This document shows, piece after piece, positions 18,101 to 46,984 of a stretch of 64,000 nucleotides of DNA. Under the pieces are notes generated by a model. It was not told the origin of the DNA. It saw only the letters and a list, made by a program, of their open reading frames with translations, and did no database searches. This stretch comes from a bacterium. Lineage in GTDB: Bacteria; Ratteibacteria; UBA8468; B48-G9; DTJG01. Each line of letters opens with the position of its first letter. Position 1 is the stretch's first letter. The translations under genes were made by a program, and so were the position numbers. The stretch lies in the NCBI GenBank assembly GCA_029552985.1, contig JAKPDB010000107.1, positions 15,170-79,169 on the forward strand, given 5' to 3'.

Positions 18101-18329
18101 CAGCACAGGCATTGATACATTCAAACCATTCCTTTGAAAGATATGCTGTATCAAGACCCACTCTGGAGTGCATAAAAAATCCTCCAAGACCCATTTGATA
18201 CATAATCCTGATCTGTCTTGTTAATTCTTCTGGTTCAAGTTTTCCATTCCACGCCCAGAAAGGGGCACCTCGATAAACACTACCAGGGGATTTGAATTCC
18301 TCGAGCATTTTTTCTATTTTCTTATCCAT
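15165..18329 (-). CDS. large (1054 aa) cytoplasmic glycoside-hydrolase-like protein, family uncertain
   Basis: N-terminus YRGAPFWAWNGKLEPEEL...QMGLGGFFMHSR resembles the N-termini of some bacterial GH-like proteins. No signal peptide. Confidence 0.4.
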   Translation of the reverse strand: MDKKIEKMLEEFKSPGSVYRGAPFWAWNGKLEPEELTRQIRIMYQMGLGGFFMHSRVGLDTAYLSKEWFECINACADEAEKLGMLAYLYDEDRWPSGAAGGLVTKNPEYRMRYLCMKIFDNVKQVKWSNNVLAVFAVNFEGRKIKSYKRIKRNETQTPGSKILVFSVEVQKNSDWYNGYTYLDTMNDRAVREFINITHQQYKKNCGKYLGTVIPGIFTDEPNYGSHYFHYIWPAQPEANIIVSWTEKLPDVFKKRYGYDILNHLPEIYFDTENQKISRVRYHYFDCITHLFVSAFAKQIGDWCEKNKILFTGHVLSEETLSSQTNVVGSAMRFYQFMQAPGMDILTEHRREFNTAKQVSSVANQFGRKWRLTETYGCTGWDFPFSGHKAIGDWQTALGINLRCQHLSWYTMLGEAKRDYPASIFYQSPWWHLYSKVENYFARIYVVMTKGREVRDLLVIHPIESMWAIFRMPELDSERKLLGRDKDIIEYDRMFQQLCDSFLSSHIDFDYGDEEILSQWAKVTKVDDYPVFQVNQARYKAVVVPPLYTIRSTTLNLLKKFRQAGGTVLFVEKTPEYVDALPATGNIFDGFEIASSFEESVKKLESKAKRVSIKDENGNEVKQILYFLREDNDAYYLFLCNTSMEWKDLSERHTLSLERNIEFNNVMISGIPDWQYPAIELDPDSGKLYSVEAIKKENGYAIKTSFPGIGSKLFIIPKKEIKLNVETRERLKEIQRTKIEKDFWDILLSEPNVFVLDRAAYKIGKDTWQEEKEILKLDREVRKQLGISLRGGTMVQPWAREKNKKLKSTPVTLKYSFIIENIPSGETCLAIEKPSLYRISINGYSIPTDIKSGWWVDRSLELLKFDPCILKKGENEIIIETDYNADHPGFEIVYLLGSFGVKMVNGNPVITEKVDKLTIGDWTHQGLLFYSGNVTYLHQIQVKIEQNQKLFVNIPEYRAVAVRILVDGKQVGIIAWPPNAIDITEFVRDGESHLLEIELLGHRRNSHGPLHFYQKYPVWTGPYQFISEGNEFVDEYQIVPCGLTKDVEIITYQML

Positions 18330-21492: not shown

Positions 21493-21840
21493 ATGATAAC
21501 ACTGTTAATTGTTGTCCATTTGATTGTGTCAATCTTGCTGATTGTGGCGGTGCTTCTTCAGAGTGGAAAAGGTTCTTCAATGGCAAATGTTTTCGGCGGT
21601 GGAGGAATGGAAACCGTATTTGGTGCAGAAACGCCTGCAATTATGAATAGAATCACAACTGTGCTTGCCATTTTGTTCATGATCAATTGTATTTTGCTTA
21701 CTACTGTGTCTTTCAAGTACAGTGGTGGTTCAGTGATTCAACGTGAAGTGCAAAAGGGTTCGATACCTCAGTCAGAAGAACCACTGCGACAGGTTCCAAC
21801 AACACCTTCCACAAATGTGCCACCGGCACAGAATAAGTAG
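21493..21840 (+). CDS. secG: preprotein translocase subunit SecG
   Basis: LLQSGKG...GGG.....FG motif, two TM segments, classic position after tpiA. Confidence 0.85.
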   Translation: MITLLIVVHLIVSILLIVAVLLQSGKGSSMANVFGGGGMETVFGAETPAIMNRITTVLAILFMINCILLTTVSFKYSGGSVIQREVQKGSIPQSEEPLRQVPTTPSTNVPPAQNK

Positions 21841-23506
21841 ACTTTGTTTTTTGTTTTTCTTTATTTTTGTATGTGCTGGTACTCCGGCAGAAATAAAACC
21901 TGGCGGGTCAATTGTCATTTCGGCGTCTTCAATACCAAAGTCATTCAATCCTATAGTGGCAAAGGAAACAAGTACAACTTTTGTTACAGGATTTATTTTT
22001 GAAGGTTTAATTGCGACTGATGGGGTCAGTTTAAAGGTTAAGCCAAATCTTGCTAAATCCTGGGATGTTGATGCCACTGGTAAAATATGGACATTTCATT
22101 TGAGAAGGGATGTTTACTGGAATGACGGTGTTCAGTTTACTGCAAAAGATGTGGAGTTTACATTCAATCGCTTGATTTTTAATCCTGATATCCCAACCAG
22201 TAGCCGGGACGTTTTCACAATAAACAATCAGTCAATCAAAGTGAAGGCAATTGATCAATTCACAGTACAGTTTATCCTTCCAGATCGATTTGCTCCATTT
22301 CTCAGGTTAATGGGTCAGGAAATACTGCCTGAACATAAATATAAAAAAGATGTTGATGAAAAAAGATTTTCGTCTGCCATGGGTCTCAATTCAAAACCGC
22401 AGGATATTGTTGGAACAGGTCCTTTTATGCTTGAGGATTTTCGTCCCGGAGAATGGGTAATATTAACGAAGAACAAATTGTACTGGAAACATGATTTAAA
22501 TGGAAATCAGCAGCCCTACCTTGATAGGATCATTATTCTGACAATTCCCGATCAAAATATGGCATTGTTGAAGTTTAAGAAAGGTGAACTTGACATGATT
22601 TCATTAAGAGCACAGGATTATTTGTTGCTCAAAAAAGCAAATCTTTCAGGGGTGAAATTTTATAATGTGGGACCTTCATTAAGTTCAGAGTTTCTTGTTT
22701 TCAATCAAAATCTTGACAGTAACATTCCTGAATATAAAAAAGAATGGTTTAGAAATATAAACTTCAGAAGAGCTGTTGCCTGCGCGATTGACAGGCAAAC
22801 AATTATCAACAATATTTTTGCTGGTCTCGGATACCCACTTTATGGACCAGTAAATGAATCTGTTCAGGAGTTTTACAATCCCAGGATAAAAAAATTTCCA
22901 TATAACATTGACCAGGCAAAAAAATATTTGATGGAAGGAGGTTTCCAATTAAGAAGAGATGGTCTTCTCTATGATTCAAAAGGAAATCAGGTTTCTTTTT
23001 CCCTCATCACCAACAGTAATAATTCTGAAAGGATTGAGCAGGCAAATTTGATTAGAAATGACCTTGAAAAACTTGGCATGAAGGTGAATTTTCTTCCGGT
23101 TGATTTTAATTCTCTCGTTACAAGAATAAATGCAACGAAAGATTGGGAATCCGTCATTATTGGATTGACAGGTGGCATTGACCCCCATTTCGGAAAGAAT
23201 GTGTGGGTGACAACAGGGCATCTTCATTTATGGAATTTAGGTTCTCCAAGATCTGTTTATGAATGGGAAAAAGAGGTCGATAGAATTTTTGAAGACGCAG
23301 CAAGAGAAATGGACCAGAAAAAGCGAAAACTTCTTTATGACAGATGGCAGGAATTGATGTGTGAAAATCAGGTAATGATTTTCACTGCCACACAGGCAGT
23401 TTTATATGCAGTCAGGGACAAATTTGGTAATTTGAAACCCACAGTATACGGTGGCTTGTTCCATAATATAGAAGAAATCTACATAAAAAGCCGATGCCAG
23501 TATTGA
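21815..23506 (+). CDS. ABC transporter substrate-binding protein, family 5 (Opp/Dpp/Nik type)
   Basis: Signal peptide (MCHRHRISRLCFLFFFIFVCAG) followed by the SBP_bac_5 pattern (ILPDRFAPF, LDRIII..IPD). The start overlaps the 3' end of secG. An alternative TTG start is at 21851. Confidence 0.8.
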   Translation: MCHRHRISRLCFLFFFIFVCAGTPAEIKPGGSIVISASSIPKSFNPIVAKETSTTFVTGFIFEGLIATDGVSLKVKPNLAKSWDVDATGKIWTFHLRRDVYWNDGVQFTAKDVEFTFNRLIFNPDIPTSSRDVFTINNQSIKVKAIDQFTVQFILPDRFAPFLRLMGQEILPEHKYKKDVDEKRFSSAMGLNSKPQDIVGTGPFMLEDFRPGEWVILTKNKLYWKHDLNGNQQPYLDRIIILTIPDQNMALLKFKKGELDMISLRAQDYLLLKKANLSGVKFYNVGPSLSSEFLVFNQNLDSNIPEYKKEWFRNINFRRAVACAIDRQTIINNIFAGLGYPLYGPVNESVQEFYNPRIKKFPYNIDQAKKYLMEGGFQLRRDGLLYDSKGNQVSFSLITNSNNSERIEQANLIRNDLEKLGMKVNFLPVDFNSLVTRINATKDWESVIIGLTGGIDPHFGKNVWVTTGHLHLWNLGSPRSVYEWEKEVDRIFEDAAREMDQKKRKLLYDRWQELMCENQVMIFTATQAVLYAVRDKFGNLKPTVYGGLFHNIEEIYIKSRCQY

Positions 23507-24009
23507 GAATGATTTATGAAAGACAGGGTGTTGCCAGGTTCATATCTGTAAATTACATTGGGAAAATTTTTGAAAGAGCAGTGAGAAGATTACAGGTAAA
23601 CCTTGAATTTTCTTATGGATATAGCCGCAGAGTGAGAATCAGTCTTGGTCCGCCTGTTGCGGTTGGTATTTCTGGTGTTAACGAGGTTATTGATATACAT
23701 GTAAAAGATAGAAGTATTTCAGCTGATGTTATTAAAAACAGTTTGAATGAGGTTCTACCTGAGGGGTTGAAGATTACAGAATGTCGTTATCTCATAGATG
23801 GTGAAAAATCACCACCTGAAATTAAGAAAGCCCGGTATAGAATTAGACAATTTCCTGATAATATTGGTGATATGCCAGAATCATGGGATGTGATTAGTAA
23901 AAACTCAGACATGATTGAAATTGAGGTCTGGATTGAAAAATTCAAACACAGGGACCTGTTTGACATTTTCGGCACATCCTGCCAGATAGAAAGAAAATTG
24001 ATTTTTTGA
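23494..24009 (+). CDS. DUF2344 (TIGR03936, radical SAM-linked) family protein
   Basis: ERAVRRLQVNLEFSYGYSRRVRISLGPPVAVG and LNEVLPEGLKI match the remembered DUF2344 consensus. Confidence 0.55.
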   Translation: MPVLRMIYERQGVARFISVNYIGKIFERAVRRLQVNLEFSYGYSRRVRISLGPPVAVGISGVNEVIDIHVKDRSISADVIKNSLNEVLPEGLKITECRYLIDGEKSPPEIKKARYRIRQFPDNIGDMPESWDVISKNSDMIEIEVWIEKFKHRDLFDIFGTSCQIERKLIF

Positions 24010-24068
24010 GCAAATTCAGTATAATTTATTCGTGGGATTTCTTATTCCACGATAATCCAGGAGATATT

Positions 24069-24848
24069 ATGTCAATGAGGTTTTCAATTTCAAAGAGGCA
24101 TGGTTTTGAAAAAAAAATTGTCTCACCGAGAAATTCTGATCTTAAATTTCTTTCATTCAGTTATTTGTTTTCAATGTTTTCGCTCCAGTTTGAACAAAAT
24201 ACTGAAGATGAAGAATGGTTGTGGGTGATTATGTCAGGGAAAATCAATATTACAATAGGAGAAAGTTCCTTTTGTATGGAAAGAAAGGGAGTGTTCAATG
24301 ATAGACCAGTATCTCTATATATTCCTGCGGGTACAAAATATGTCGTGAAATCTGAGGGATTTTCAGAAGCAGTGGCGGTCTCCGCACCATCAGGGAAAAA
24401 TTTTTCTCCTGTATTTATTTCATCTGACGGCATAGAGGTTCAAAGGGCAGGAAAATTGAATTATCAGCGTTCAATTTTTAATATCATGCCTCAGGATTTT
24501 CCTGCTTCCAAAATTATAGCAGGCGAGACAATTCATGATACTGGTCACTGGTCCTGTTTTCCTCCACATAAGCACGATGAAGACAGGATGCCAGAAGAGA
24601 GCAAACATGAGGAACTATATTTTTTCAAATGCGAACCAGAAAAAACAGGCTTCGGACTGATGCGTGTTTACGATGATACACAGGATGTCGCATTTCCGAT
24701 TCTTCCCAATGATGTGATTACCATTCCAAAAGGTTATCATCCAGTAAGTGTGATACCCGGTCATAAACTTTATTATTTCTGGGCGCTTGCTGGTGAAAAA
24801 CGGCCATTTCAAAGACACACGCATCCTGATTATCTTAAGTATGAATAA
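24069..24848 (+). CDS. iolB: KduI/IolB family isomerase (5-deoxy-glucuronate isomerase-like)
   Basis: WSCFPPHKHDEDRMPEESKHEELYFF...RVYDD...IPKGYHPV closely matches B. subtilis IolB (PPHKHDQDNLPEES..EETYYH). SD CCAGGAGA lies before the ATG at 24069. Confidence 0.7.
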   Translation: MSMRFSISKRHGFEKKIVSPRNSDLKFLSFSYLFSMFSLQFEQNTEDEEWLWVIMSGKINITIGESSFCMERKGVFNDRPVSLYIPAGTKYVVKSEGFSEAVAVSAPSGKNFSPVFISSDGIEVQRAGKLNYQRSIFNIMPQDFPASKIIAGETIHDTGHWSCFPPHKHDEDRMPEESKHEELYFFKCEPEKTGFGLMRVYDDTQDVAFPILPNDVITIPKGYHPVSVIPGHKLYYFWALAGEKRPFQRHTHPDYLKYE

Positions 24849-24858
24849 AGGGGGATAT

Positions 24859-25686
24859 ATGAACAAGGAAATTATAGATTTATTCAGTCTTGATGGAATG
24901 AATGCGGTAGTAACAGGGGCAGCAGGAGTACTAGGATTCAGCATATGCGCAGGACTGGCAGGTGCAGGAGCATCCGTGGCCATCGCCGATATAAAAAATT
25001 TTAAAGAAGCAGCAGAGCAGTTGAAAAAAAAAGGTCTTGATGCAGAAGGGTTTTACATTGATGTACTGAAAAAAGACAAGATTATTGAGTGCGCAAAAGA
25101 GATTATGGAGAAATATAAAAAAATTGATATTCTCGTTAATTGCGCTGGGGGCAACTTAAAGGAAGCAACAACATCTCCTGAATTAAGTTTTTTTGATCTT
25201 CCTGTTGAGGGTCTGGAACGGGTTGTGGCTTTGAATCTTTTTGGAGGAGCGATACTACCATCTCAGGTATTTGGCAGGGAAATGGTAAAAAACCCTGACG
25301 GTGGATCTATCATCAATATATCTTCCATGAATGCGTTCAGACCTCTTACGAGAATTCCTGGTTATTCTGCAGCAAAAGCAGCAGTGAGTAATTTTACTCA
25401 ATGGCTCGCAGTGCACTTTGCAATGGAATACAACAAATTGTTAAGAGTTAATGCAATAGCGCCTGGTTTTTTTCTTACTCAACAAAATCGGTATCTTCTG
25501 ATAGACGAAAACAATGATCTTACTCCAAGAGGCAAGACAATTATCAATCACACTCCAATGGGAAGATTTGGTGAGCCAGATGATTTAATAGGAAGTTGTA
25601 TATGGCTTGCATCAAGAGCATCAAAGTTTGTGACAGGCGTTGTAATTCCTGTCGATGGCGGCTTTAATGCATATTCGGGTGTTTAA
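24859..25686 (+). CDS. SDR family oxidoreductase (KduD/mannonate-type sugar-acid dehydrogenase-like)
   Basis: TGAAGVLG Rossmann motif, NCAGG, and the YSAAK catalytic motif. Confidence 0.8.
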   Translation: MNKEIIDLFSLDGMNAVVTGAAGVLGFSICAGLAGAGASVAIADIKNFKEAAEQLKKKGLDAEGFYIDVLKKDKIIECAKEIMEKYKKIDILVNCAGGNLKEATTSPELSFFDLPVEGLERVVALNLFGGAILPSQVFGREMVKNPDGGSIINISSMNAFRPLTRIPGYSAAKAAVSNFTQWLAVHFAMEYNKLLRVNAIAPGFFLTQQNRYLLIDENNDLTPRGKTIINHTPMGRFGEPDDLIGSCIWLASRASKFVTGVVIPVDGGFNAYSGV

Positions 25687-25709: not shown

Positions 25710-27197
25710 ATGAAAAAAGCAAATATTGCGATAATTGGAATGGAAGTTATGGGAAGAAGCCTTGCCCTCAATATGGAAAGCAAAAACTATACTGTGGCAG
25801 TTTATAACAGAACAGCAGAAAAAACAAAAGCGTTTGTTGAAGGTCCTGCCAGGGGGAAAAATATTATTCCTACCTATGAGTTAAAAGATCTGGTTGATTC
25901 TCTGGAAAGTCCGAAAAAGATTATGTTGATGGTAAAAGAGGGCCAGCCGGTGGACAATTTTATAGAAATGCTTCTTCCCTATCTGAAGCCTGGAGACCTT
26001 ATTATCGATGGAGGCAATTCATTCTTTAAGGACACAATCAGAAGAAACAAAATGTTATCAGAAAAGGGAATTCTTTTTATTGGAACAGGCGTGTCAGGGG
26101 GAGAAGAAGGTGCATTGAAAGGGCCAGCCATTATGCCTGGAGGACAAAAGGAAGCATATCGACTTGTAGAGAAGATATTCAGGGATATTGCGGCAAAGGC
26201 ATACGACGGTGAGCCGTGCGTTGATTACATAGGTCCTGATGGAGCAGGGCACTTTGTGAAAACTATTCACAACGGAATTGAGTACGGCGATATGCAGTTG
26301 ATTGGTGAGGTTGTGTGGTTTTTTAAAAACATTGGAATGAAGGCAGATGAAATTGCTGATATCATGGCAAAATGGAACGATAGGGACGACATTTTGAGAT
26401 CATACCTGATAGAAATTACTGCTGACAGTATGAAACAAAAACATCAGGGTTCTGACGAATTTCTTGTTGACAGGGTCGCGGATATTACGAGAATGAAAGG
26501 GACTGGCACCTGGACTGTCCAGAGTGCGCTGGAACTATTGGTGCCGATTCCAACAATTGCTGCAGCAGTATTTTCAAGAGAGATGTCTCAGGATAAACAG
26601 TTGCGCCTTGCAATGGCAAAGAAACTAACGATCGCGTCCGGCAAATTCAATGGTGACAAAAAAGAAATTATTGAAATAGCTCACGATGCACTATACATAG
26701 CCAAGATTTCATCATATGCCCAGGGAATTGCTTTGCTTCAGGCTGCTTCAAAAGAGTACAATTTTCACCTGAATATTGGTAGAATTGCAAAAATATGGCG
26801 TGCAGGATGCATCATCAGGGCTCAATTTCTTGATGAAATTACTAAAGCGTATGAATCTGACCCAGACCTTCCAAATCTTCTTGCTGCACCAAAATTTGCC
26901 AGTTTCGTTGAATCTAACACCTGGAAGCTTGCAAAGTTCATTGATGTTGCTCATCAATGCGGAGTGCCTGTTCTGGCTATGTCTGGTGCGCTTGATTACA
27001 TAATGCAGATTACATCGCCTGTGATGCCATCTGCTCAGGTTTCTGCTCTTCAAAGAGATTACTTTGGAGCCCATGGTTATTTCAAAATTGGCGGACCAAA
27101 AGACCCTGAACTTGTTGTAAATGAAGAAGGAAAGGTGCGTGAATTCCATACTGAATGGTTACTTCCAGGAAGACCAGAAAGAGAAATCACAAAGTAA
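25710..27197 (+). CDS. gnd: 6-phosphogluconate dehydrogenase (decarboxylating)
   Basis: IGMEVMGRSLALN, the 495-aa length and a C-terminal 6PGD domain. Confidence 0.9.
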   Translation: MKKANIAIIGMEVMGRSLALNMESKNYTVAVYNRTAEKTKAFVEGPARGKNIIPTYELKDLVDSLESPKKIMLMVKEGQPVDNFIEMLLPYLKPGDLIIDGGNSFFKDTIRRNKMLSEKGILFIGTGVSGGEEGALKGPAIMPGGQKEAYRLVEKIFRDIAAKAYDGEPCVDYIGPDGAGHFVKTIHNGIEYGDMQLIGEVVWFFKNIGMKADEIADIMAKWNDRDDILRSYLIEITADSMKQKHQGSDEFLVDRVADITRMKGTGTWTVQSALELLVPIPTIAAAVFSREMSQDKQLRLAMAKKLTIASGKFNGDKKEIIEIAHDALYIAKISSYAQGIALLQAASKEYNFHLNIGRIAKIWRAGCIIRAQFLDEITKAYESDPDLPNLLAAPKFASFVESNTWKLAKFIDVAHQCGVPVLAMSGALDYIMQITSPVMPSAQVSALQRDYFGAHGYFKIGGPKDPELVVNEEGKVREFHTEWLLPGRPEREITK

Positions 27198-27244: not shown

Positions 27245-28297
27245 GTGTCTTTGTATATGTTTGAAAAATTAGCAAAACAGAAATTACAGGAAACTCCGCA
27301 AGAATATTTGAAAACGTTCGAAAGAACTAAAGATTTTCTTGTGGCAATTGATACGGATGGATGCATTGCCGACAATATGAATGCTAAACAGATATTGATA
27401 TTCCACCCGTTATACATGGAATTCTATCAGCTGTGGGAAATTGAGTCCTACTTCAGAGAGATTGCTGAATTTTATAATCTTTTTTCTGTTCACAGGGGTT
27501 GCAATAGATTTCTTGCTATCAGGTACACATTAAATGCTTTGCACAGTCGTCAGGATGTTCGAAATGAAGTAAAAAAACTAAATGTAACTCTACCAGAAAT
27601 TAAGCCAGTTGAGCAATACATTGAATTTTGTAGAAAGAATAACTACGGCATGGGAAATGTTTCTCTGGACCAATTTCTGTCAACGCGAGTTTTTGATTCT
27701 GGACTTTATAAACTATCAGGGTGGAGTCAGGCGGTTAATAAAGCACTTGAGTATATCGTTGATAAAGTTCAACCTTTTGAGAATGTGAGGGAGTGTCTTG
27801 AAATAATTTACAAGCACGCGGACATTGCTGTGATTTCTCAAACTCCTTATGAAGATTTATTTAATTACTGGAATACACATGGTCTTTTGAAATATGTAAA
27901 AGTGATTTGCGGTCAGGAGATGGGAAGCAAAACGTATCATATAGAGATGTTGAAAAAGGTTGGCAAATATTCTGATGAGGCGGTACTAATGGTTGGTGAT
28001 GCTATCGGGGATTTTGAGGCAGTTAAGAAAAATAACGGACTTTTCTATCCTGTTGTTCCTGGGAATGAAAACGATTCCTGGAAAAAATTTCCAGAGGTGT
28101 TTGAATTGTTTTTGACGGGTAAGTATCATGGGGAATTAGAGCAATACTTGATTGGTGAATTTTCAAAAAAATTACCTGATAGGCCACCGTGGCAAACACA
28201 GGGTTATGATCATACCGCTTCTTACAGAAAAAATCAGGAAATCAGGAAATCTCTTTATAAACAATTTAATCCTGACGGGAGGTTACTCATTTTATGA
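27245..28297 (+). CDS. HAD superfamily hydrolase (putative phosphatase) with a large cap domain
   Basis: Motif I VAIDTDGCI and motif IV MVGDAIGDFEA. The GTG start is 14 nt after GGAGG; an alternative ATG is at 27257. Confidence 0.6.
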   Translation: MSLYMFEKLAKQKLQETPQEYLKTFERTKDFLVAIDTDGCIADNMNAKQILIFHPLYMEFYQLWEIESYFREIAEFYNLFSVHRGCNRFLAIRYTLNALHSRQDVRNEVKKLNVTLPEIKPVEQYIEFCRKNNYGMGNVSLDQFLSTRVFDSGLYKLSGWSQAVNKALEYIVDKVQPFENVRECLEIIYKHADIAVISQTPYEDLFNYWNTHGLLKYVKVICGQEMGSKTYHIEMLKKVGKYSDEAVLMVGDAIGDFEAVKKNNGLFYPVVPGNENDSWKKFPEVFELFLTGKYHGELEQYLIGEFSKKLPDRPPWQTQGYDHTASYRKNQEIRKSLYKQFNPDGRLLIL

Positions 28298-29580
28298 AAA
28301 TAGGAACAGGCAATAAGAATGAGGTTCTGTCTGAACAGAAATTTGGTTCTATTTTACAGAATATTGTGATATCTCTTGGTCTGGAGAAAAAGGAAAAGGT
28401 TCTGGTTATTATACCTGATAGTACTCGTTCAGGTCCAACAGGAGATGTTTTTAGAGTCATAGTTGATACTCTTTACCACAGGGTTAAAAAGCTGGATTTT
28501 ATGATCGCACTTGGAACTCATCCAGTAATGACAGTGGAAAACATTGAAAAATTGCTTGGAATTAACTGTCAGAAGTTCCAGGAGAAATATCCGCAGACGC
28601 AGATATTTCAACACTGCTGGGATGATGAAAAAACGATAGTGGAAATTGGTACCATTACAGCCAGCGAAATTTCGAGAATTTCTCGTGGGCTTTTAAACGA
28701 GGATATCCCTGTGACAATTAACAGAACCATACTTGATTATGACCACATTATTCTCGCAGGACCTGTTTTTCCTCACGAGGTTGTTGGGTTTTCTGGTGGA
28801 TATAAGTATCTTTTTCCTGGAATTTCAGGTCCTCATTTCCTTCACAAATTCCACTGGCTCGGCGCTTTAATTACAAATCCTAAGATCAATGGCGTGAAAG
28901 ATACTCCTGTCAGAGAAGCAATAAACAAAGCAGTTTCTTTTATAAATAAGCCAATCACACAGATATGTTATGTGGTAAAAGAAAAAAAGGTCTATGGAAT
29001 ATTCGCAGGAGACAATGAGGCATGGTCTGCAGCAGCAGATCTATCTGCGCAATTGAATATTGAATATGTCGACAGAAGTTATAACGAGGTTCTTTCAATG
29101 GCGCCAGTGATGTATGATGACATATGGACTGCCGGTAAATGTATGTATAAACTTGAACCGATTGTTTCTGATGGTGGAAATTTAATTATCTATGCTCCAC
29201 ATATCACAGAGGTTTCTTATACACACGGAAAGTACATCAGACAGGTTGGATATCATACGCGTGACTATTTTCTTAAACAATGGGAAAGATTTAAGAATTT
29301 TCCAGGCGGTATCCTTGCCCATTCCACTCATGTCAAGGGTATCGGCACTTTTCTTGATGGAATTGAAACTCCAAGAATCAACGTTTATCTTGCAACTGGC
29401 ATAAGTAAACAGGTGTGCCAGCAAATTAACCTCGGCTATATCAATCCAGATGAGATCAACATTGATGATTTTCGAAAGAAACAGGATACTTTTGTTGTGG
29501 AAAATGCAGGAGAGATACTATTCAGATTGAAAAGTGGCCAAGTTCCAGACATTGATAAACTTTATGAGAGGCGAAAATGA
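28294..29580 (+). CDS. LarA family (lactate racemase-like) nickel-pincer-nucleotide-dependent hydroxyacid racemase/epimerase homolog
   Basis: N-terminal DUF2088-like motifs IIPDSTRSGP and ALGTHP. The FPHEVVGFSGGYKYLFPG segment matches the LarA H..GxSGGxK cofactor-tethering region. 428 aa. Start overlaps the HAD stop (ATGA). Confidence 0.65.
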   Translation: MKIGTGNKNEVLSEQKFGSILQNIVISLGLEKKEKVLVIIPDSTRSGPTGDVFRVIVDTLYHRVKKLDFMIALGTHPVMTVENIEKLLGINCQKFQEKYPQTQIFQHCWDDEKTIVEIGTITASEISRISRGLLNEDIPVTINRTILDYDHIILAGPVFPHEVVGFSGGYKYLFPGISGPHFLHKFHWLGALITNPKINGVKDTPVREAINKAVSFINKPITQICYVVKEKKVYGIFAGDNEAWSAAADLSAQLNIEYVDRSYNEVLSMAPVMYDDIWTAGKCMYKLEPIVSDGGNLIIYAPHITEVSYTHGKYIRQVGYHTRDYFLKQWERFKNFPGGILAHSTHVKGIGTFLDGIETPRINVYLATGISKQVCQQINLGYINPDEINIDDFRKKQDTFVVENAGEILFRLKSGQVPDIDKLYERRK

Positions 29581-30947
29581 GTTATTTATTTAAAAAACAA
29601 TATCCAGATTTTAGACTTTTTGAAAGTTCCTTGAGAAAGCATGGTGACGATTATTACTTTGTTGCTGAAAAAAATGGAAGGATGTATCTGGTTATTGGAA
29701 ACAATTCCTTTCGGTTTATTGAACGAGAGGAATCACCTGAAATATTAAGAAAAACGTTTTCATTTCTCACCCCGGTCTGTGCAGGTATGAAAAATTCCTT
29801 TGGCTTTGGCGACCGGACAGGTTTTGCAACCCCAGGGCATATCCGTGCAGTAGAGGGAAGTGGGCTTTTCCCAATTTTTGCGCAGCAGTCAGCAAGGGAA
29901 CTCGAAAGAACAGGAAGGACATTCAAACAGGTTCTTGACGATGTAATTTTTTGGTGTTTTGCCTTTGGCTGGATAAATGGTTTTGGAGCGGATGCTGACC
30001 ATGCGAAAAATTTTGATGTTTTACAGGAAGCAATTTCTGCTGGCTACACATTTTTCACCATTGACCCCTCTGATAAAATCAGAAACCCATCAGACATTGC
30101 ATCGTGCAAAAAGCAAAGTATCGACAAATACATTAAGGAATATTCTGGTAAGAATTTCGCATGTAATGGATTTTCTTTTGTTTTCACTGAAGAAATGGTT
30201 TCTGAACTTGCTATTACATATGGGCAAGCTATTGATTTCATTGAGGAGTGTTATTTATTTATTTCTGACAGGAAAAAGAATTTTGATTTTGAGGTTTCTG
30301 TTGATGAAACAAAAGTCCCGACAACTGTTTATGCCCATGTATTTATTGTTATGGAGCTTCGCAGGAGAAATATTGAATTCAATAGCCTTGCTTTGCGTTT
30401 TTCCGGAAGATTTGAAAAGGGGATAGATTATATTGGAGATATTAATGAATTTGCCAGAGAACTGGAAATTCATAATAAAATACGGAATCATCTTGGACCA
30501 TATAAGATTTCACTCCATTCTGGAAGCGACAAATTCAGTATATATGGTGCGTTCAAAAAAACACTTGGAGACATGTTTCATGTCAAGACATCTGGGACTT
30601 CGTGGATTCAGGCGATGAAAACCATTGCAGCAATTGACAGGGAATTTTTTATGAAGTGTCTGGAAGTTGCGCTGAAGGACTTTGAAAAAAATTCAAGGTC
30701 CTATGAAATTTCCACAGATATTTCAAGGATAAATTTAGAAAAAATAAGGAACGAAAATCTTGATGAGATATTTTCCGATAATCATATCAGGCAGTTGATT
30801 CATATCAGTTATGGAAGTATTATTGGAAACGCTCCTGAGAGTCAGGAAATGAAACAACATTACAACATCCTGATTGAAAAAAATTGTGAGCTTTATTTTC
30901 GTTTTATTGAAGAACATTTGAAGAAACATGTTCAACTGCTTACATGA
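29577..30947 (+). CDS. GatZ/KbaZ-like TIM-barrel protein (candidate sugar-acid/sugar-phosphate epimerase, UxaE/tagatose-6P epimerase-like)
   Basis: Local resemblance to E. coli GatZ segments (GADADHAKN..AISAGYTFFTIDPS vs GGDHLGPN..YVAAGFSKIHLDAS; LHSGSDKF..HVKTSGTSW vs EAHSTDY..ILKVGPAL). Start overlaps the LarA stop (ATGA). Confidence 0.45.
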   Translation: MSYLFKKQYPDFRLFESSLRKHGDDYYFVAEKNGRMYLVIGNNSFRFIEREESPEILRKTFSFLTPVCAGMKNSFGFGDRTGFATPGHIRAVEGSGLFPIFAQQSARELERTGRTFKQVLDDVIFWCFAFGWINGFGADADHAKNFDVLQEAISAGYTFFTIDPSDKIRNPSDIASCKKQSIDKYIKEYSGKNFACNGFSFVFTEEMVSELAITYGQAIDFIEECYLFISDRKKNFDFEVSVDETKVPTTVYAHVFIVMELRRRNIEFNSLALRFSGRFEKGIDYIGDINEFARELEIHNKIRNHLGPYKISLHSGSDKFSIYGAFKKTLGDMFHVKTSGTSWIQAMKTIAAIDREFFMKCLEVALKDFEKNSRSYEISTDISRINLEKIRNENLDEIFSDNHIRQLIHISYGSIIGNAPESQEMKQHYNILIEKNCELYFRFIEEHLKKHVQLLT

Positions 30948-30957
30948 AAGGAGAAAT

Positions 30958-32880
30958 ATGAACAAAAAAAGATTTCCTTATAGCCAGTTGCCTGAAAGTG
31001 AAATTAAGAAACTTCAGGAATTCAGCAATCTCTGTCGAAGGGATGTGCTGACAATGACAACTCTTGCTGGTTCTGGGCATCCTGGTGGTTCAATGTCTGC
31101 TATGGAAATTTACAATGTTGTCTTCCATTATGCAGCAATCAGTCCTGATGCCCCAGATGATCCTGAGAGAGATAAAATTGTTGTCAGTTTTGGCCATACT
31201 TCTCCTGGTGTGTATGCTGTGTTAGGAAGGCTTGGTTTTTTTGACCTTGATACAGCCATTGCTTCCTTCAGACAGGCAGGTAGTATTTTTGAAGGGCACA
31301 TTGTGAGAAAAGTGCCAGGGGTTGAATGGGGCACAGGAAATCTGGGGCAGGGACTATCTGCGGGTTGTGGTTTTGCTCTGATTGATAAAATAAAAAATCG
31401 GGATACTTTTACCTTCGTGTTGATGAGTGATGGTGAACAGACAAAGGGTCAAGTGGGCGAGGCACGTCGTTTTGCAATCAAATACAAACTTAACAATCTC
31501 AGGGTTATTATTGATTATAACAGAATTCAAATCAGCGGCTGTATTTTTGATATCATGCCTAACAACATTAAGGAAAACTATCTTGCTGATGGATGGGAAG
31601 TAATGGAGACCGATGGTCATGACATATCCGACCTTTACGACACGATTAGAAGAAGTTTAGAAATTGATAAACCTGTTTGTATCATTGCCAGCACAGTTAT
31701 TGGAAAGGGTGTTTCTTTTATGGAAGGTAAATGTGCCTATCATGGAAAAGTTTTGAAGGAAGACGAGTACATGAAAGCCGTGGAAGAACTTGGTCTTTGT
31801 AGCGAACTTGAAAAATACAGAGAAATCAGAAAAAATAAAATGTATTCATTTCCAGACAGAACGTTCGATATTAAAATTTCAGCGCTTCAGGGCTCTATCC
31901 GGGTGTATCAGCCAGGTACAAAAATTGATAATCGCACAGCATTTGGAAACGCATTGCTTGACATTGGAATAGCCAATAAGGATAACAAAGACAATCCAGT
32001 AATTGTTTTTGATTGCGACCTTGCAAGTTCTGTTAAAACAGATTTATTTGCAAAACAATTTCCTGAAAGATTTTTTCAATGTGGTGTTCAGGAACATCAT
32101 GCAGCGACTGTAGCAGGGGCTGCTTCTGTTGATGGCGCCATCAGTTTTTTTGCTGATTTTGGGGTTTTTGGAGTGGATGAAACTTACAATCAGCACCGGT
32201 TGAATGACCAGAATTATACAAATTTGAAAATTGTGTGTACGCATCTTGGGCTTGATGTGGGAGAAGATGGAAAGACTCATCAGTGCATTGATTATGTGGG
32301 ACTATTCAGAAATGTTTTTGGAATAAGACTCATTATACCCGCAGATGCCAATCAAACCGATAGAGTAATCAGATATGTTGCCACTCATCCTGGAAATTAT
32401 TTTGTTGGAATGGGTCGTTCCTATACACCGATTATAACAACTTCTGATGGGAAACCATTTTTTGGAGAAAAATATCAATTCGAATACGGCAAGGCAGATA
32501 TTTTAAGAGATGGGAAACATGGATTTATTTATACTTTGGGAGCACTGGTGCCAAGAGCAGTTGCTATTTCTGACCGGCTCAGGCAGGATGGAGTTAGTAT
32601 TGGTGTTATCAATTGCTCATGCCCTGTTATAATTGATAGGGAAGCAATGGAATTGGGCATAAAAACTGGTTTGATCATATCATATGAAGACCATGTGGTT
32701 GATTCAGGGCTTGGTATGACAATTGCTGCATATATTGCTGAAAAACAAGTTAACGTGAAATTTCACAGGTTTGGTATTAGGAAATACGGTAGTTCAGGAA
32801 CACCTGATGAACTTTATGCTGAACATGGGCTTGACCCTGAAACAATGATATCTTTTATTAAAAGCATTATTAAAAAATAA
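30958..32880 (+). CDS. tkt: transketolase (single-chain, ~640 aa)
   Basis: GSGHPGGSMS TPP motif. SD AAAGGAGA precedes the ATG at 30958. Confidence 0.85.
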   Translation: MNKKRFPYSQLPESEIKKLQEFSNLCRRDVLTMTTLAGSGHPGGSMSAMEIYNVVFHYAAISPDAPDDPERDKIVVSFGHTSPGVYAVLGRLGFFDLDTAIASFRQAGSIFEGHIVRKVPGVEWGTGNLGQGLSAGCGFALIDKIKNRDTFTFVLMSDGEQTKGQVGEARRFAIKYKLNNLRVIIDYNRIQISGCIFDIMPNNIKENYLADGWEVMETDGHDISDLYDTIRRSLEIDKPVCIIASTVIGKGVSFMEGKCAYHGKVLKEDEYMKAVEELGLCSELEKYREIRKNKMYSFPDRTFDIKISALQGSIRVYQPGTKIDNRTAFGNALLDIGIANKDNKDNPVIVFDCDLASSVKTDLFAKQFPERFFQCGVQEHHAATVAGAASVDGAISFFADFGVFGVDETYNQHRLNDQNYTNLKIVCTHLGLDVGEDGKTHQCIDYVGLFRNVFGIRLIIPADANQTDRVIRYVATHPGNYFVGMGRSYTPIITTSDGKPFFGEKYQFEYGKADILRDGKHGFIYTLGALVPRAVAISDRLRQDGVSIGVINCSCPVIIDREAMELGIKTGLIISYEDHVVDSGLGMTIAAYIAEKQVNVKFHRFGIRKYGSSGTPDELYAEHGLDPETMISFIKSIIKK

Positions 32881-32893
32881 ACAGGAGGTTCAA

Positions 32894-33094
32894 ATGAAAT
32901 GTAATAGAGACACTAATCTAAAACATTGTACCTGCACATATGTTTCATGCAGTAAACGTGGTATGTGCTGTGAATGCGTTGCCTATCACAGAGACAGTGG
33001 TGAAATTCCGGGTTGCTTTTTTCCGCCTGAAGCAGAAAAAAGTTATGATAGGTCAATCAAAAATTTTATCAATGTGTGGAACAAAAAAGTGTAG
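32894..33094 (+). CDS. small Cys-rich protein (C-x-C...C..C-C-E-C)
   Basis: 66 aa with 8 Cys (CTCTYVSCSKRGMCCECVAYHR...GCFFP). A strong AGGAGG SD is present. Confidence 0.4.
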   Translation: MKCNRDTNLKHCTCTYVSCSKRGMCCECVAYHRDSGEIPGCFFPPEAEKSYDRSIKNFINVWNKKV

Positions 33095-34105: not shown

Positions 34106-35182
34106 ATGAAAATTACTAAAAAGGAGGAGATTTTGAGAGCCGCTATTTTCCATGGTCCAGAAAAAATTTCTGTAGAGAACTGGAAATTACCAGTGTGTGC
34201 AGACGACGAGATTTTGATAAAAGTGAATTATTGTGCGATATGCGGTACAGATGTTAGAACCTTTTTCCATGGACATAAGAAAGTGATTCCTCCTGCTATT
34301 ATCGGGCATGAAATAACAGGAGAAATTGTTGAAATCGGAAAAGAGGTAAAAACAAACCTGAAAGTTGGTGATAGAATCACGCCTGTTACTTCTATTGGTT
34401 GCGGTGTCTGTCGACTATGTCAGAAAGGACTTTATAATCTATGTCCTGATACAAAGGCGCTTGGATATTACTGGGCTGGAGGATTTGCTGAGTACATGAT
34501 TATTCCAGGACCTGCTGTAAAACAAAATGCCTGGGTACTTTTACCTGAAAATGTTTCTTTGCTTGAGGGGGCTCTCATTGAACCTCTTTCTTGTGTCATC
34601 AATGCTCAAAATTACTTAAACATACAGGATGGAGATACAGTTGTGATTTATGGTGGAGGACCCATTGGATTTATGCACGCTGTTATGGCTCAGACATCAG
34701 GCGCAGAAAAACTTATTATGGTGGACCCTGCGTTTGATCGTCTTGAGAAATTTGCGAGGAATTTCGACAATATTATTCTGATAAATCCAAATACTGAAAA
34801 TACTGTTGCAAAAATAAAAGATATTACCAGAAATTTTGGTGCGGATGTGGTTATCACTGCATGTCCTGCAAAGCAGGCACAGATTGAGGCATTTTCTATT
34901 GCGGCACCGCACAGTAGAATCAGTTTCTTCGGCGGGCTTCCAAAAGATGATTCAATGATTACGATTGACAGCAATCTGATTCATTACCTGGAAATCTCAG
35001 TTTTTGGAGCATTTGCGTCAAATCGAAAAGATTATCAGAAAGCAGTGGATTTAATATCTTCAAGAAAAATAGATCCGTCAAAATTCATCACTGAAGTAAT
35101 TTCTCTTGAAGAGATTGAAAAGGGAATTCGTCTTGTGAAGAATGGCAGTGTATTAAAGGTTGTGGTGAAGATACAGGAGTAA
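34106..35182 (+). CDS. zinc-dependent alcohol dehydrogenase (sorbitol/threonine dehydrogenase-like MDR)
   Basis: CAICGTD...GHE Zn motifs and the GGGPIG NAD motif. The likely true start is the in-frame TTG at 34133, 5 nt after AAGGAGG. Confidence 0.85.
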   Translation: MKITKKEEILRAAIFHGPEKISVENWKLPVCADDEILIKVNYCAICGTDVRTFFHGHKKVIPPAIIGHEITGEIVEIGKEVKTNLKVGDRITPVTSIGCGVCRLCQKGLYNLCPDTKALGYYWAGGFAEYMIIPGPAVKQNAWVLLPENVSLLEGALIEPLSCVINAQNYLNIQDGDTVVIYGGGPIGFMHAVMAQTSGAEKLIMVDPAFDRLEKFARNFDNIILINPNTENTVAKIKDITRNFGADVVITACPAKQAQIEAFSIAAPHSRISFFGGLPKDDSMITIDSNLIHYLEISVFGAFASNRKDYQKAVDLISSRKIDPSKFITEVISLEEIEKGIRLVKNGSVLKVVVKIQE

Positions 35183-35185
35183 ATC

Positions 35186-35977
35186 ATGAAATCAGAGGTT
35201 TTGAAAGACAAAATTACAATTATCACAGGTGCAGGAAGAGGTCTTGGAGAGGCATTAAGTTATGGATTTGCACAAGAGGGTGCAATCATATGTCCATGGG
35301 ACATTGATGAAAACAATCTAAATAGGGTTGCAGAAGAATTGAAAAAACTTAACAGGCTTGGAAGAAAAGCAAAACTTGATATTACTGACGAACATCAGGT
35401 GAAAAAAGAAATTGAAGCGATTGAATCAGAATTCAGGAAAATTGATATTTTAATTGCTAATGCAGGTATTTTGAGGTCCTATGAAATCACAGATTTTCCA
35501 GAAGAGGATTGGAGGAAAATTATTGAGGTAAATCTCACAGGATATTTTATTTGTGCAAAGTATACTGCAAGGGTAATGAAGAAACAACGTAGTGGAGTGA
35601 TTATTCAAATTAACTCAAAGTCAGGAAAAAAAGGAAGCTACTGGAATTGCGCGTATGCGGCAAGCAAATTTGGCGGTATCGGGCTTACACAGAGCATTGC
35701 ACTTGATCTTGCACCGTTTAATATCAGAGTTAATGCGATATGCCCCGGGAATATTCTTGAAAGTCCTCTATGGCAGACAAGTTTGTTTCAGCAGTATGCA
35801 AAAAAATGGGGCATTTCCATAGAGGAGGTTAAGAAAAAATATATTGACCAGGTACCTCTCGGCAGGCCGTGCACATACAAGGATGTGATTAATGTGGCTG
35901 TTTTTCTTGCAAGCGATTATGCCAGTTACATGACAGGCCAGGCAATTAACGTGACCGGTGGTCAGGAAATGAGATGA
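35186..35977 (+). CDS. srlD: sorbitol-6-phosphate 2-dehydrogenase-like SDR
   Basis: IIQINSKSGKKGS, AAKFGGIGLTQSIALDL and ASYMTGQAINVTGGQEM closely match E. coli SrlD. Confidence 0.75.
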   Translation: MKSEVLKDKITIITGAGRGLGEALSYGFAQEGAIICPWDIDENNLNRVAEELKKLNRLGRKAKLDITDEHQVKKEIEAIESEFRKIDILIANAGILRSYEITDFPEEDWRKIIEVNLTGYFICAKYTARVMKKQRSGVIIQINSKSGKKGSYWNCAYAASKFGGIGLTQSIALDLAPFNIRVNAICPGNILESPLWQTSLFQQYAKKWGISIEEVKKKYIDQVPLGRPCTYKDVINVAVFLASDYASYMTGQAINVTGGQEMR

Positions 35978-39825: not shown

Positions 39826-40770
39826 ATGAAGCGATTGGTAAGCATTTTCATTAAAGTATTCGTAAGCGGGTTTTTTATATTCCTTATTACCAAGAAGATT
39901 GATATCCCGCAGATGATTGAAATTTTGCAAAATGTAGATGTTCCATTTTTCATAGTCATCATTCTGATTAATTACGTGGTGACTTTTTTTATGGCTCTCA
40001 GATGGTACTTTATTCTGGACGAATTCAGAAAAAAAATGCCATTTGCTAAAGTGTGGCAATTGTCTCTTATTGGAATGTATTTTAATATCATTTTACCGAC
40101 TGGAGCAGGCGGAGATGCCGTCAAAATTTTTTATATTACCAGAAATCAGGAGGAAAAATTGAAACTTGGTACATCTGTAATTTTTGATCGATTTATTGGT
40201 TCGTCATCTATCATTTTTATGGCTATACTCAGTTTATTATATTATCAGGGACACTTGCCTCAAAAATTGAAAATTACCCTTGTATTTCTTTTCATTCTTG
40301 CGCTGTCTGTCTGGCTTTTGATCGTCTGGGATAAACTTGCCATTTTGACGGGGAAACTTTTTCCTCGTAGAATCAGAGAAAAGTTAAGGGCATTCTATAA
40401 TCATCTCAGGGATTATGGGATTAATCGAAGGGTTTTTACCAATGCCTTTCTGGCAAGCATGGCTGTTCAGGTGATTTCGATTTATGTTCAGTATTTATGT
40501 GTAATACTCATTTCTCATGCGGATAAAGCATTTGTTCCTTTCCCTTTGTTTTTTATATTCATTCCCATTATATGGCTTTCAGCAATGATTCCTTCCCTCG
40601 GCGGGCTTGGAATAAGGGAATATGGTTATCTTTTTTTCTTTAAACCTTTTATCGGTCAGGAAGCAGCAATTGCAATGGCACTGATTAATCTGTTTTTAAT
40701 TTTTTCCCAGGCATTTCTCGGGGGATTGATTTTTTTATTTCTTCGTCAAGGTCTTCGAGACCGCAAATAA
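39826..40770 (+). CDS. flippase-like / lysylphosphatidylglycerol-synthase TM-region (UPF0104) membrane protein
   Basis: Polytopic membrane protein with a GGDAVK motif in the first loop. Confidence 0.5.
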   Translation: MKRLVSIFIKVFVSGFFIFLITKKIDIPQMIEILQNVDVPFFIVIILINYVVTFFMALRWYFILDEFRKKMPFAKVWQLSLIGMYFNIILPTGAGGDAVKIFYITRNQEEKLKLGTSVIFDRFIGSSSIIFMAILSLLYYQGHLPQKLKITLVFLFILALSVWLLIVWDKLAILTGKLFPRRIREKLRAFYNHLRDYGINRRVFTNAFLASMAVQVISIYVQYLCVILISHADKAFVPFPLFFIFIPIIWLSAMIPSLGGLGIREYGYLFFFKPFIGQEAAIAMALINLFLIFSQAFLGGLIFLFLRQGLRDRK

Positions 40771-41703
40771 ATGTGTTTTTCAGCAATTGTATTACCTCGT
40801 CAGGACTTGGAAAATCTGTAAAAGCCCTTGCTGCCTTTGCTGTTGCGGATGCAACTGCAAACCTTAACGATTCTTTGAAATTGCCTGTTTGAGAAAAAGA
40901 CAAAACGAATCCAGCAAGAAGGACATCACCACACCCGACAGAACCAGGATTATTAACGACTGGACCGTTTGCATAAAAAAAGCCATCCTTTGAGAATCCA
41001 ATAGCTCCTTTGTCTCCCATTGTGACGATAATAAATGGAATCCCTGATTTTAGCAGTTTTTCCCCTGTCTGACATAGATGTTCAAAATTGAGAATCCGTT
41101 CCGACATAAGTCTTTCAAGTTCCCAGATATTGGGCTTTATTAAATCAGGTTTTTCGCCAACGCCATAACGAAGAAATTTTCCATCTGTATCAAGGCCAAT
41201 CAACGTATTTTTTCCTCTTCGGCGGATTTCTTTTATTAATCTGGCGTATAAATCTTCAGGCATTCCAGGAGGTAAACTACCAGAAATGAGAATCCATTTT
41301 GCAGGATTAAAATCAATACTGAATATAAATTTAAGTATTTCCTTCAGGGACTGTTTGTTTATGGTAGGACCAGGTTCATTGAATCGTAAGACTGTACCGT
41401 TTTCAAAAAAAAATTGTAATTTTCTCTGGTTTCTCCCTCTATATCAATTATGAAATCAGTGGAAATGCCTGATTTTTTTAAAAGATTTTTGAAACGGGTT
41501 CCGTTAAAACCGCCTGCAATGCCAACTGATTGTACATCTACATTAAACTTGCTCAGAAATTTTGCAATATTAATCGCCTTACCGCCCGCAGATACAATCT
41601 TTTTGCTGATTCGGATAATATCGTCTGTTTTGAATTCTTTGGCAAAACAGTTAACGTCCAGACACGGATTCAAGCCAATTGTAATAAAACTATTTTGCGG
41701 CAT
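40685..41703 (-). pseudogene. PfkB-family sugar kinase (1-phosphofructokinase / tagatose-6-P kinase / KDG-IolC-like), frame disrupted at a T9 homopolymer
   Basis: The N-terminal ORF (41703-41359) and C-terminal ORF (41263-40685) are both PfkB-like. Reading through the 9-nt A/T run at 41405-41413 with one extra base gives a continuous ...NYNFFFENGTVLRFNEPGPTINKQSLKEILKF...ISGSLPPGMPEDLY PfkB sequence. Confidence 0.7.
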
Positions 41704-46982: not shown

Positions 46983-46984
46983 GT

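Follow-up and report, generated by a model that had tools for sequence, protein, structure and literature searches.

Gene organization of the cluster

A stretch of 64,000 nucleotides from contig JAKPDB010000107.1 (referred to here as the window) was analyzed with respect to a candidate operon for hexuronate catabolism that includes a gene for a LarA homolog. The unit consists of eight genes on the + strand between 24.0 and 33.1 kb:

24006..24848, + strand: KduI/IolB-family cupin isomerase (Pfam PF04962, 208.5 bits)
24787..25686, + strand: SDR oxidoreductase of the D-mannonate oxidoreductase (fructuronate reductase) subfamily (NCBIfam NF006132), likely start ATG 24859
25710..27197, + strand: Gnd, decarboxylating 6-phosphogluconate dehydrogenase (NCBIfam NF006765 and TIGR00873; Pfam 6PGD and NAD_binding_2)
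27245..28297, + strand: HAD-superfamily phosphatase-like protein of 346-350 amino acids, here called HAD347, start GTG 27245 or ATG 27257
28294..29580, + strand: LarA homolog (LarAH), GntE branch, group-19-like (Pfam Lar_N; match to PDB 4NAR)
29577..30947, + strand: UxaE-family D-tagaturonate/D-fructuronate epimerase (Pfam PF16257, 465.5 bits)
30958..32880, + strand: transketolase (NCBIfam NF004556; all three Pfam transketolase domains)
32894..33094, + strand: DUF6485 Cys-rich protein of 66 amino acids, last gene of the unit (Pfam PF20095, 40.7 bits), AGGAGG upstream

The junctions were read directly from the sequence. The genes for HAD347 and the LarA homolog share an ATGA overlap at 28294-28297 with GGGAGG upstream, and a second ATGA overlap at 29577-29580 joins the LarA homolog to UxaE. 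The transketolase gene has an ATG at 30958, 11 nt past the UxaE stop codon, with an AAGGAG ribosome binding site 5 nt upstream; its longest open reading frame (ORF) begins at 30928. The ORFs, both ATGA overlaps and the 11-nt spacing in front of tkt that had been described in the initial annotation are thus all present on the + strand, and the upstream neighbours named there (gnd, SDR, KduI/IolB, DUF2344 and a substrate-binding protein) were borne out by Pfam and NCBIfam. The start of the KduI/IolB-type gene is uncertain and lies at TTG 24006 or, by comparison with homologs of 260 amino acids, at ATG 24069. A GGAGG motif precedes the HAD347 gene, for which a database copy (P0121) begins at 27257. 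At its 3' end, the unit converges with the DUF6485 gene on a − strand PLD gene.

The cluster directly follows gap-pgk-tpi-secG, located on the same strand, both here and in close relatives. The gene order from gap-pgk-tpi-secG through DUF6485 was found in at least seven other species-level genomes with a protein identity of 55-92%, so the arrangement is conserved and not fortuitous. The nearest relatives are metagenome-assembled genomes (MAGs) labelled Ratteibacteria, Omnitrophota and related candidate phyla. The DUF6485 gene is kept directly behind tkt only in the closest syntenic genomes, which form the sub-lineage without the PFK-family paralog described below in the cluster. A scan for promoters and terminators between 18 and 36 kb gave counts at chance level (61 vs. 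52.6±7.6 and 11 vs. 12.9±4.0, respectively), which have no bearing on the transcript boundaries.

Family assignment of the isomerase, SDR, UxaE, Gnd and transketolase

The assignment of Gnd is based on 596 bits to NF006765 (cutoff 413) and 568 bits to TIGR00873 (cutoff 427), and that of the transketolase on 939 bits to NF004556 (cutoff 575). The PF16257 score of the UxaE protein compares with a cutoff of 27.1 bits, and solved tagaturonate/fructuronate epimerases were matched with E-values of 1.6e-110 (9LHW) and 6.5e-79 (Cohnella UxaE, 6ILB). The initial annotation had recognized a HAD protein, a LarA family member, a UxaE-type epimerase, an SDR, KduI/IolB, Gnd and transketolase, all of which were recovered, whereas its alternative label 'GatZ/KbaZ-like' for the epimerase had to be dropped: the only Pfam match at E≤0.01 is UxaE.

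For the SDR, a score of 344.6 bits was obtained with NF006132, the D-mannonate oxidoreductase subfamily (cutoff 281), and the protein stays below the cutoffs of the KduD model (TIGR01832, 168 vs. 338.85) and of the gluconate 5-dehydrogenase models. The cupin reaches 186.6 bits with the IolB equivalog TIGR04378, just below the cutoff of 205, and 23 bits with the KduI equivalog NF002091 (cutoff 250). None of the genes iolC, iolD, iolE and iolJ was found near the cupin gene, and no UxaC is encoded in the window; the KduI/IolB-family protein is found in its usual place. IolB converts 5-deoxy-glucuronate to 5-deoxy-fructuronate, which is the same aldose-ketose isomerization on a uronate. By this analogy, the IolB-like cupin plausibly stands in for UxaC.

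The same scores bear on a standard KduI/KduD pathway, in which unsaturated uronates released by pectin or alginate lyases would be converted to 2-keto-3-deoxygluconate (KDG) and the remaining genes would be unrelated neighbours. A KduI/IolB-family gene is indeed followed directly by an SDR gene, and the KduD models do score partially, but this pathway was rejected on the curated cutoffs, which the two proteins miss for KduI and KduD while the SDR exceeds that of the D-mannonate oxidoreductase subfamily. The genes kdgK and kdgA are missing, KDG as a 2-keto acid is no substrate of the LarA type, and LarAH, 6-phosphogluconate dehydrogenase (6PGD) and SDR genes co-occur in 29-33 of the 33 loci compared below. 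Such a pathway is therefore considered highly improbable.

The LarA homolog belongs to the GntE branch

The LarA homolog was found to match Pfam Lar_N with a moderate score of 87.6 bits (cutoff 23.3), by which the family membership proposed in the initial annotation holds. PDB 4NAR was matched over residues 10-414 with an E-value of 4e-64, compared to 1e-6 for the LarA structures 5HUQ and 6C1W. 4NAR is Thermotoga maritima TM0442 (GntE2, LarAH20), which converts D-mannonate to D-gluconate in vitro with nickel-pincer nucleotide (NPN) as its cofactor (PMC7583248).

The functional residues were analyzed in a MAFFT alignment with L. plantarum LarA and the group 18, 19 and 20 sequences from Desguin Dataset S2 (PMC7583248). 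The catalytic residues H108 and H174 and the NPN-binding residues D72, R75, K184 (covalent tether), H200 (Ni ligand) and K298 (L. plantarum numbering) are kept in all seven positions. The signature of the window protein, D R H H E V K H V W T G K, equals the published pattern of group 19 (GntE1-type), which is defined by Glu175, Val176, Val220, Trp294, Thr/Val295 and Gly/Ala297. The identity is 48-51% to group 19 (Plim_2304 and Trad_0660), 34-35% to group 20 and 28% to group 18 (ACP_2683 and Acid345_4308). Membership in group 18 was ruled out by this low identity and by 188 bits to NCBIfam NF052594 (cutoff 500). The protein is thus a group-19-like member of the GntE branch as judged from its sequence, and it is predicted to be an NPN-dependent hexonate 2-epimerase acting on D-mannonate to give D-gluconate, or on the corresponding 6-phosphates. 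Epimerization of D-mannonate to D-gluconate in vitro has been described for GntE1, GntE2 and LarAH15 (PMC7583248, PMC11770544).

HAD347 loci are conserved across phyla

For the identification of related loci, a profile scan for HAD347 was performed with one genome per GTDB species, resulting in 96 relatives. The carriers are MAGs of Omnitrophota, Ratteibacteria, Firestonebacteria, Latescibacterota, TA06, Aerophobetes, Atribacterota, Thermotogota and Actinomycetota (about nine phyla), along with one isolate, Pseudothermotoga sp. U03pept. Neighbouring genes were counted in the 33 species-level loci with at least 6 kb upstream and at least 3 kb downstream of HAD347. The LarA homolog lies beside HAD347 in 33 of 33 loci. 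An SDR gene was found nearby in 31 loci, 6PGD in 29, UxaE in 27 and a PFK-family gene in 22, followed by transketolase (12 of 33), a KduI-like gene upstream of SDR-6PGD (9 of 33) and UxaC (3 of 33). Across phyla, the genomic link of HAD347 to GntE-type LarA homologs is obligate.

Two architectures were observed. The first, [UxaC]-UxaE-SDR-6PGD-LarAH-PFK-HAD347 with a group-20 LarAH, is found in Thermotogota, Atribacterota and Actinomycetota; the Pseudothermotoga LarAH matches 4NAR with 569 bits and is 77% identical to Tlet_0823. The second, [KduI]-SDR-6PGD-[PFK]-HAD347-LarAH-[UxaE]-[Tkt] with a group-19-like LarAH, occurs in Omnitrophota, Ratteibacteria, Latescibacterota and Firestonebacteria. 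The window represents a sub-type of the second architecture which lacks PFK and carries UxaE-Tkt-DUF6485.

Some of these loci are embedded in catabolic genes. The Atribacterota versions begin with UxaC and also contain an ABC transporter. In Pseudothermotoga sp. U03pept (locus L072, 888-11035), DeoR-uxaE-SDR-gntE-PFK-HAD347 is divergent from IolM (529 bits), an IolG-like gene and IolN (538 bits), and both IolM and IolN exceed their equivalog cutoffs. Together, these genes make up the inositol pathway of the Thermotoga type, whose product is tagaturonate. The placement of the module among catabolic genes in Atribacterota and Thermotogota speaks for uronate catabolism as its chemistry.

A different setting was found in at least five Latescibacterota species, in which SDR-6PGD-PFK-HAD347-LarAH is located between rpsS (S19) and rplV (L22) inside the S10 operon and no isomerase or UxaE is present (L005 4865-11671; also L038, L058, L074, L029, L050 and L006). 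This position of the core module suggests constitutive expression in Latescibacterota. The SDR, 6PGD, PFK paralog, HAD347 and LarA homolog could accordingly be viewed as constitutive central carbon metabolism and not as a route for external uronates, possibly an alternative supply of 6-phosphogluconate and pentose phosphates, in which PFK would phosphorylate sedoheptulose-7-phosphate within a pentose phosphate pathway that does without transaldolase. Besides the five-gene core in the S10 operon, the position directly after gap-pgk-tpi-secG in the window and its relatives, the recurrence of transketolase as a neighbour and the lack of a regulator and a dedicated permease in the window unit fit such a role. 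It is nevertheless judged unlikely, given the catabolic loci elsewhere (UxaC and the ABC transporter in Atribacterota; DeoR, IolG, IolM and IolN in Pseudothermotoga), and no plausible route could be written from a glycolytic intermediate to fructuronate or mannonate with these enzymes alone.

HAD347 is a distinct HAD family

In total, 503 homologs of HAD347 were found, nearly all of which are 345-348 amino acids in length and 53-61% identical across phyla. The motifs I (DxDG), II (S/T), III (K) and IV (GDxxxD) are present and invariant in the family. The protein combines a Rossmannoid fold with a C-terminal extension and an enlarged cap, in which numerous Arg, Asn and Trp positions are likewise invariant. 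HAD347 thus reads as a catalytically intact phosphoryl-transfer enzyme.

Searches of 21 members against NCBIfam gave nothing better than an E-value of 0.002, with marginal matches to phosphoglycolate phosphatases only. No PDB sequence match was obtained, and the Foldseek TM-scores of 0.3-0.4 indicate no close solved structure. The HAD-IA C1-capped phosphatases (phosphoglycolate phosphatase, YniC, AlnB, CbbY and beta-phosphoglucomutase) are only 11-17% identical to HAD347, which is larger by about 150 residues (the enlarged cap and the C-terminal extension) and is not matched by any curated subfamily.

Most likely, HAD347 hydrolyses or transfers the phosphate of a phospho-hexonate; the initial annotation had suggested the trimming of a phosphorylated intermediate. 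Possible functions are a proofreading or overflow phosphatase for the phospho-hexonate, a phosphotransferase or a mutase. A role as maturation factor of the NPN cofactor was set aside, as T. maritima GntE2 and the published group-19 loci have no HAD347.

Proposed pathway and comparison with known systems

In T. maritima, the operon aldH-pelB-gnd-uxaRED-gntEK is induced by pectin and regulated by UxaR (PMC3750489). According to PMC7583248, PMC6978723 and PMC3750489, Rodionova et al. (2012) proposed a route that leads from tagaturonate to fructuronate by UxaE, to mannonate by the SDR UxaD, to gluconate by GntE, to 6-phosphogluconate by GntK and to ribulose-5-phosphate by Gnd. The genes between 24.0 and 33.1 kb probably form an operon for hexuronate catabolism into the pentose phosphate pathway that is a variant of this UxaE/UxaD/GntE/GntK/Gnd route.

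The input of the route would be a hexuronate or an inositol-derived keto-uronate. An aldo-uronate (glucuronate or galacturonate) would first be converted to the keto-uronate by the KduI/IolB-type cupin in place of UxaC. UxaE, for which the family assignment is strong, would interconvert D-tagaturonate and D-fructuronate, and the SDR, assigned at subfamily level, would reduce D-fructuronate to D-mannonate. As suggested by the in vitro data for GntE1, GntE2 and LarAH15, the LarA homolog with its nickel-pincer nucleotide would then invert C2, giving D-gluconate. The phosphorylation of the hexonate to 6-phosphogluconate, a step also foreseen in the initial annotation, would require a kinase encoded outside the operon, for which the divergent PFK-family paralog is the candidate in relatives. 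Finally, Gnd would yield ribulose-5-phosphate and CO2, and transketolase would feed glycolysis. The chemistry outlined in the initial annotation (UxaE-type epimerization, SDR reduction, 2-epimerization by LarA, entry through Gnd and Tkt) remains the best-supported reading, based on the family assignments and the T. maritima route.

The claim that a LarA family member encoded together with Gnd represents an undescribed pathway could not be upheld in this strong form, since the homologous cluster aldH-pelB-gnd-uxaRED-gntEK is already characterized (PMC3750489) and the activity of GntE has been demonstrated in vitro (PMC7583248). The T. maritima operon (TM0438-TM0443) and the window share UxaE, an SDR fructuronate/mannonate oxidoreductase, a LarA-family hexonate 2-epimerase and Gnd in one unit, with the same logic from keto-uronate to ribulose-5-phosphate. 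In contrast to T. maritima, the window lacks GntK, the UxaR regulator and the pectinases, its LarAH is group-19-like (34-35% identical to GntE2) instead of group 20, and its SDR belongs to another subfamily than TM0441. The KduI/IolB-type isomerase, HAD347, transketolase and DUF6485 are added, and the genomic context is housekeeping.

Within group 19 of the LarA homologs (GntE1 of Corynebacterium glutamicum, Plim_2304 and Trad_0660), the window protein has the identical signature D R H H E V K H V W (T/V) (G/A) K. D-gluconate 2-epimerase activity was demonstrated for GntE1, although its authors suspected another native substrate, e.g., an aldarate (PMC7583248). The published group-19 contexts contain LarB, LarE, LarC, UxaC, altronate dehydrogenase and LacI, but not the 6PGD, HAD347 and PFK found in the present loci. 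The context described here points to a hexonate that feeds 6-phosphogluconate dehydrogenase.

The galacturonate pathway of Lactobacillus suebicus (Valk et al., 2020; PMC6978723) is similar to the window in its UxaE, fructuronate reductase, 6PGD and link to the pentose phosphate pathway, and it likewise needs a 2-epimerase and a non-canonical kinase. In L. suebicus, mannonate kinase as well as a 6-phosphomannonate 2-epimerase are known only from extracts, with no genes assigned to them; GntK-like kinases and phosphoketolase are used, and no HAD347 or PFK paralog was reported. The literature search on phosphomannonate returned only this study, and no paper was found on the PFK/HAD variant. New in comparison with these systems is a widespread variant without GntK, in which HAD347 is the obligate partner of the nickel-pincer epimerase, the PFK paralog is usual and a cupin is found for UxaC. 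The transketolase as a neighbour is new but trivial.

Several observations weigh against an operon of hexuronate catabolism in the window. The SDR is not an ortholog of T. maritima UxaD (the match to 1VL8 is only 126 bits), and the unit is devoid of uxaC, a transporter permease and a regulator. The NPN biosynthesis genes larB, larC and larE are not among the ORFs of the 64-kb window. GntE1, the only assayed enzyme of group 19, has a Km of 120 mM for D-mannonate (PMC7583248), leaving the native substrate of the group in doubt. No step could be assigned to HAD347, and a phosphatase is not obviously needed in the pathway. A housekeeping context, i.e., the position after gap-pgk-tpi-secG or, in Latescibacterota, inside the S10 operon, is unusual for an inducible catabolic operon. 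Furthermore, no kinase is encoded in the unit, and no GntK/FGGY homolog was detected in 92 loci (L001-L092) using phmmer with E. coli GntK and XylB at E≤1e-3, a search in which the single FGGY query may miss very distant members.

A PFK-family paralog as candidate for the missing kinase

The only sugar-kinase genes in the window are a ROK gene 18 kb upstream of the unit and a disrupted PfkB gene. The latter is split into two ORFs within 40685-41703 (− strand), of which 41359-41703 covers profile positions 12-99 and 40685-41263 covers positions 148-299, with about 95 nt between them. It may represent a pseudogene, a frameshift or an assembly error.

In 57 loci, the cluster contains a PFK paralog (L008 5603-6937 and 56 others), which is absent from the window. 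It belongs to the PRK14072 subfamily of pyrophosphate (PPi)-dependent PFKs (340 bits vs. a cutoff of 273) and matches the PPi-PFKs 3HNO and 3K2Q with about 220 bits. It shares with these the nucleotide/PPi motifs as well as the catalytic motifs TIDND and MGR. The paralog differs from both in an insertion after TIDND and in that it is always linked to HAD347 and the LarA homolog. At least 90% of the 57 cluster copies have a Pro where 3HNO and 3K2Q have a Lys, together with a degenerate FGHxQLGG sugar-binding motif. By alignment with E. coli PfkA, this Pro position is presumed to correspond to Arg162, which in PfkA binds the 6-phosphate of fructose-6-phosphate. The exchange at this position and the degenerate motif hint at a substrate other than fructose-6-phosphate.

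The gene order gives a further indication. PFK and HAD347 occupy the place of gntK in T. maritima, as seen from uxaE-SDR-gntE-PFK-HAD347 in Pseudothermotoga vs. uxaE-uxaD-gntE-gntK. A COG1070 kinase is present in six of the seven group-20 loci of Desguin Table S1 (PMC7583248), and we infer that the seventh, without this kinase, is that of T. lettingae. The published signature residues of its PFK/HAD347-linked LarAH (Tlet_0823) are the same as those of the GntK-linked GntE2 except for one A/S position. Given these nearly identical signatures, Tlet_0823 and T. maritima GntE2 probably use the same substrate, which favours PFK, with or without HAD347, as the replacement of gluconate kinase.

A tentative explanation, held with low confidence, is that HAD347 and the PFK paralog act as a hitherto unrecognized pair of enzymes and take over the part of gluconate kinase in the GntE route. 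PFK would phosphorylate the hexonate or keto-uronate, one possibility being that the substrate carboxylate is placed in the former 6-phosphate site, and HAD347 would transfer or edit the phosphate of the phospho-hexonate.

Alternatively, phosphorylation could precede epimerization. The keto-uronate or D-mannonate would then be phosphorylated first, by the PFK paralog in relatives, and the LarA homolog would act as a 6-phospho-D-mannonate/6-phospho-D-gluconate 2-epimerase. The phospho-hexonate would also be the substrate of HAD347, which would serve as a proofreading or overflow phosphatase or substitute for GntK as a phosphotransferase. Such a phosphorylated route has been measured in extracts of L. 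suebicus, in whose proteome a LarA homolog was detected (PMC6978723). The Km for free D-mannonate is in the millimolar range (9-120 mM) in all assayed GntE enzymes (PMC7583248, PMC11770544), and the published work covered unphosphorylated substrates. The absence of GntK, with the PFK paralog and HAD347 in its place, and the exchange at the presumed phosphate site and the degenerate sugar-binding motif of the PFK paralog are also in line with this order of steps. However, GntE2 handles free mannonate at about 200 per second (PMC7583248), and the near identity of the Tlet_0823 and GntE2 signatures argues for the same substrate. In addition, the window has no PFK paralog, and a phosphatase is hard to rationalize where phosphate is needed. 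A phosphorylated route is thus regarded as rather unlikely, and the epimerization of free D-mannonate, as in the GntE route, is the preferred reading.

Other genes in the window

Two genes directly upstream of the unit were characterized as follows:

21743-23506, + strand: SBP_bac_5 (Pfam/NCBIfam)
23494-24009, + strand: DUF2344 (Pfam/NCBIfam)

The SBP_bac_5 gene has no adjacent permease; genes for an Opp-type permease and ATPase are located about 22 kb away on the other strand (45173-49005, −). DUF2344 (TIGR03936), a radical-SAM-associated housekeeping family, overlaps the stop codon of the SBP_bac_5 gene and is followed by RNase G in relatives. Based on this, SBP_bac_5 and DUF2344 were set aside as parts of the pathway.

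Immediately upstream of gap, a protein of 1054 amino acids (15165-18329, −) shows a weak match to the GH106 alpha-L-rhamnosidases (54 bits), and a link to the degradation of pectin or rhamnogalacturonan is possible. Downstream of the operon, a Zn-dependent alcohol dehydrogenase gene is followed by an SDR gene (34106-35977, +). The alcohol dehydrogenase scores equally with the IolM and Tdh models, below the cutoff in both cases, and the SDR is above the equivalog cutoff for sorbitol-6-phosphate dehydrogenase (353 vs. 307). The riboflavin operon comes right after this pair, which the closest relatives also carry downstream of the unit.

A URO-D-like (MtaA/CmuA-type) protein (6017-7354, −) and a separate protein with a B12-binding domain (55600-56229, −) suggest a corrinoid methyltransferase system. 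No Pfam match was obtained for an ORF of 373 amino acids (51547-52668, −) between argG and a GNAT acetyltransferase gene.

Implications

The native substrate of the group-19 LarA homologs had not been settled in 2020, and the loci described here give these proteins a physiological context of SDR and 6PGD. A conserved, uncharacterized HAD-like family is identified as the obligate partner of nickel-pincer hexonate epimerases, and a PFK-family paralog is pointed to as a non-orthologous replacement of gluconate kinase. If the proposed function of the HAD347/PFK pair is true, 6-phospho-hexonates may be the in vivo substrates of the GntE-type LarA homologs, and the pair would supply missing genes for the mannonate kinase/6-phosphomannonate 2-epimerase chemistry of the L. 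suebicus type. The module would then also be part of constitutive central metabolism in some phyla, wired into a ribosomal-protein operon.

The module is testable in the cultivable Pseudothermotoga and with existing NPN-loading systems, and it has a bearing on the redox-neutral fermentation of galacturonate, which is of biotechnological interest. For Omnitrophota, Ratteibacteria, Latescibacterota and Atribacterota, the assignments would allow better metabolic reconstructions from genes that are now annotated as 'lactate racemase' or 'HAD hydrolase'.

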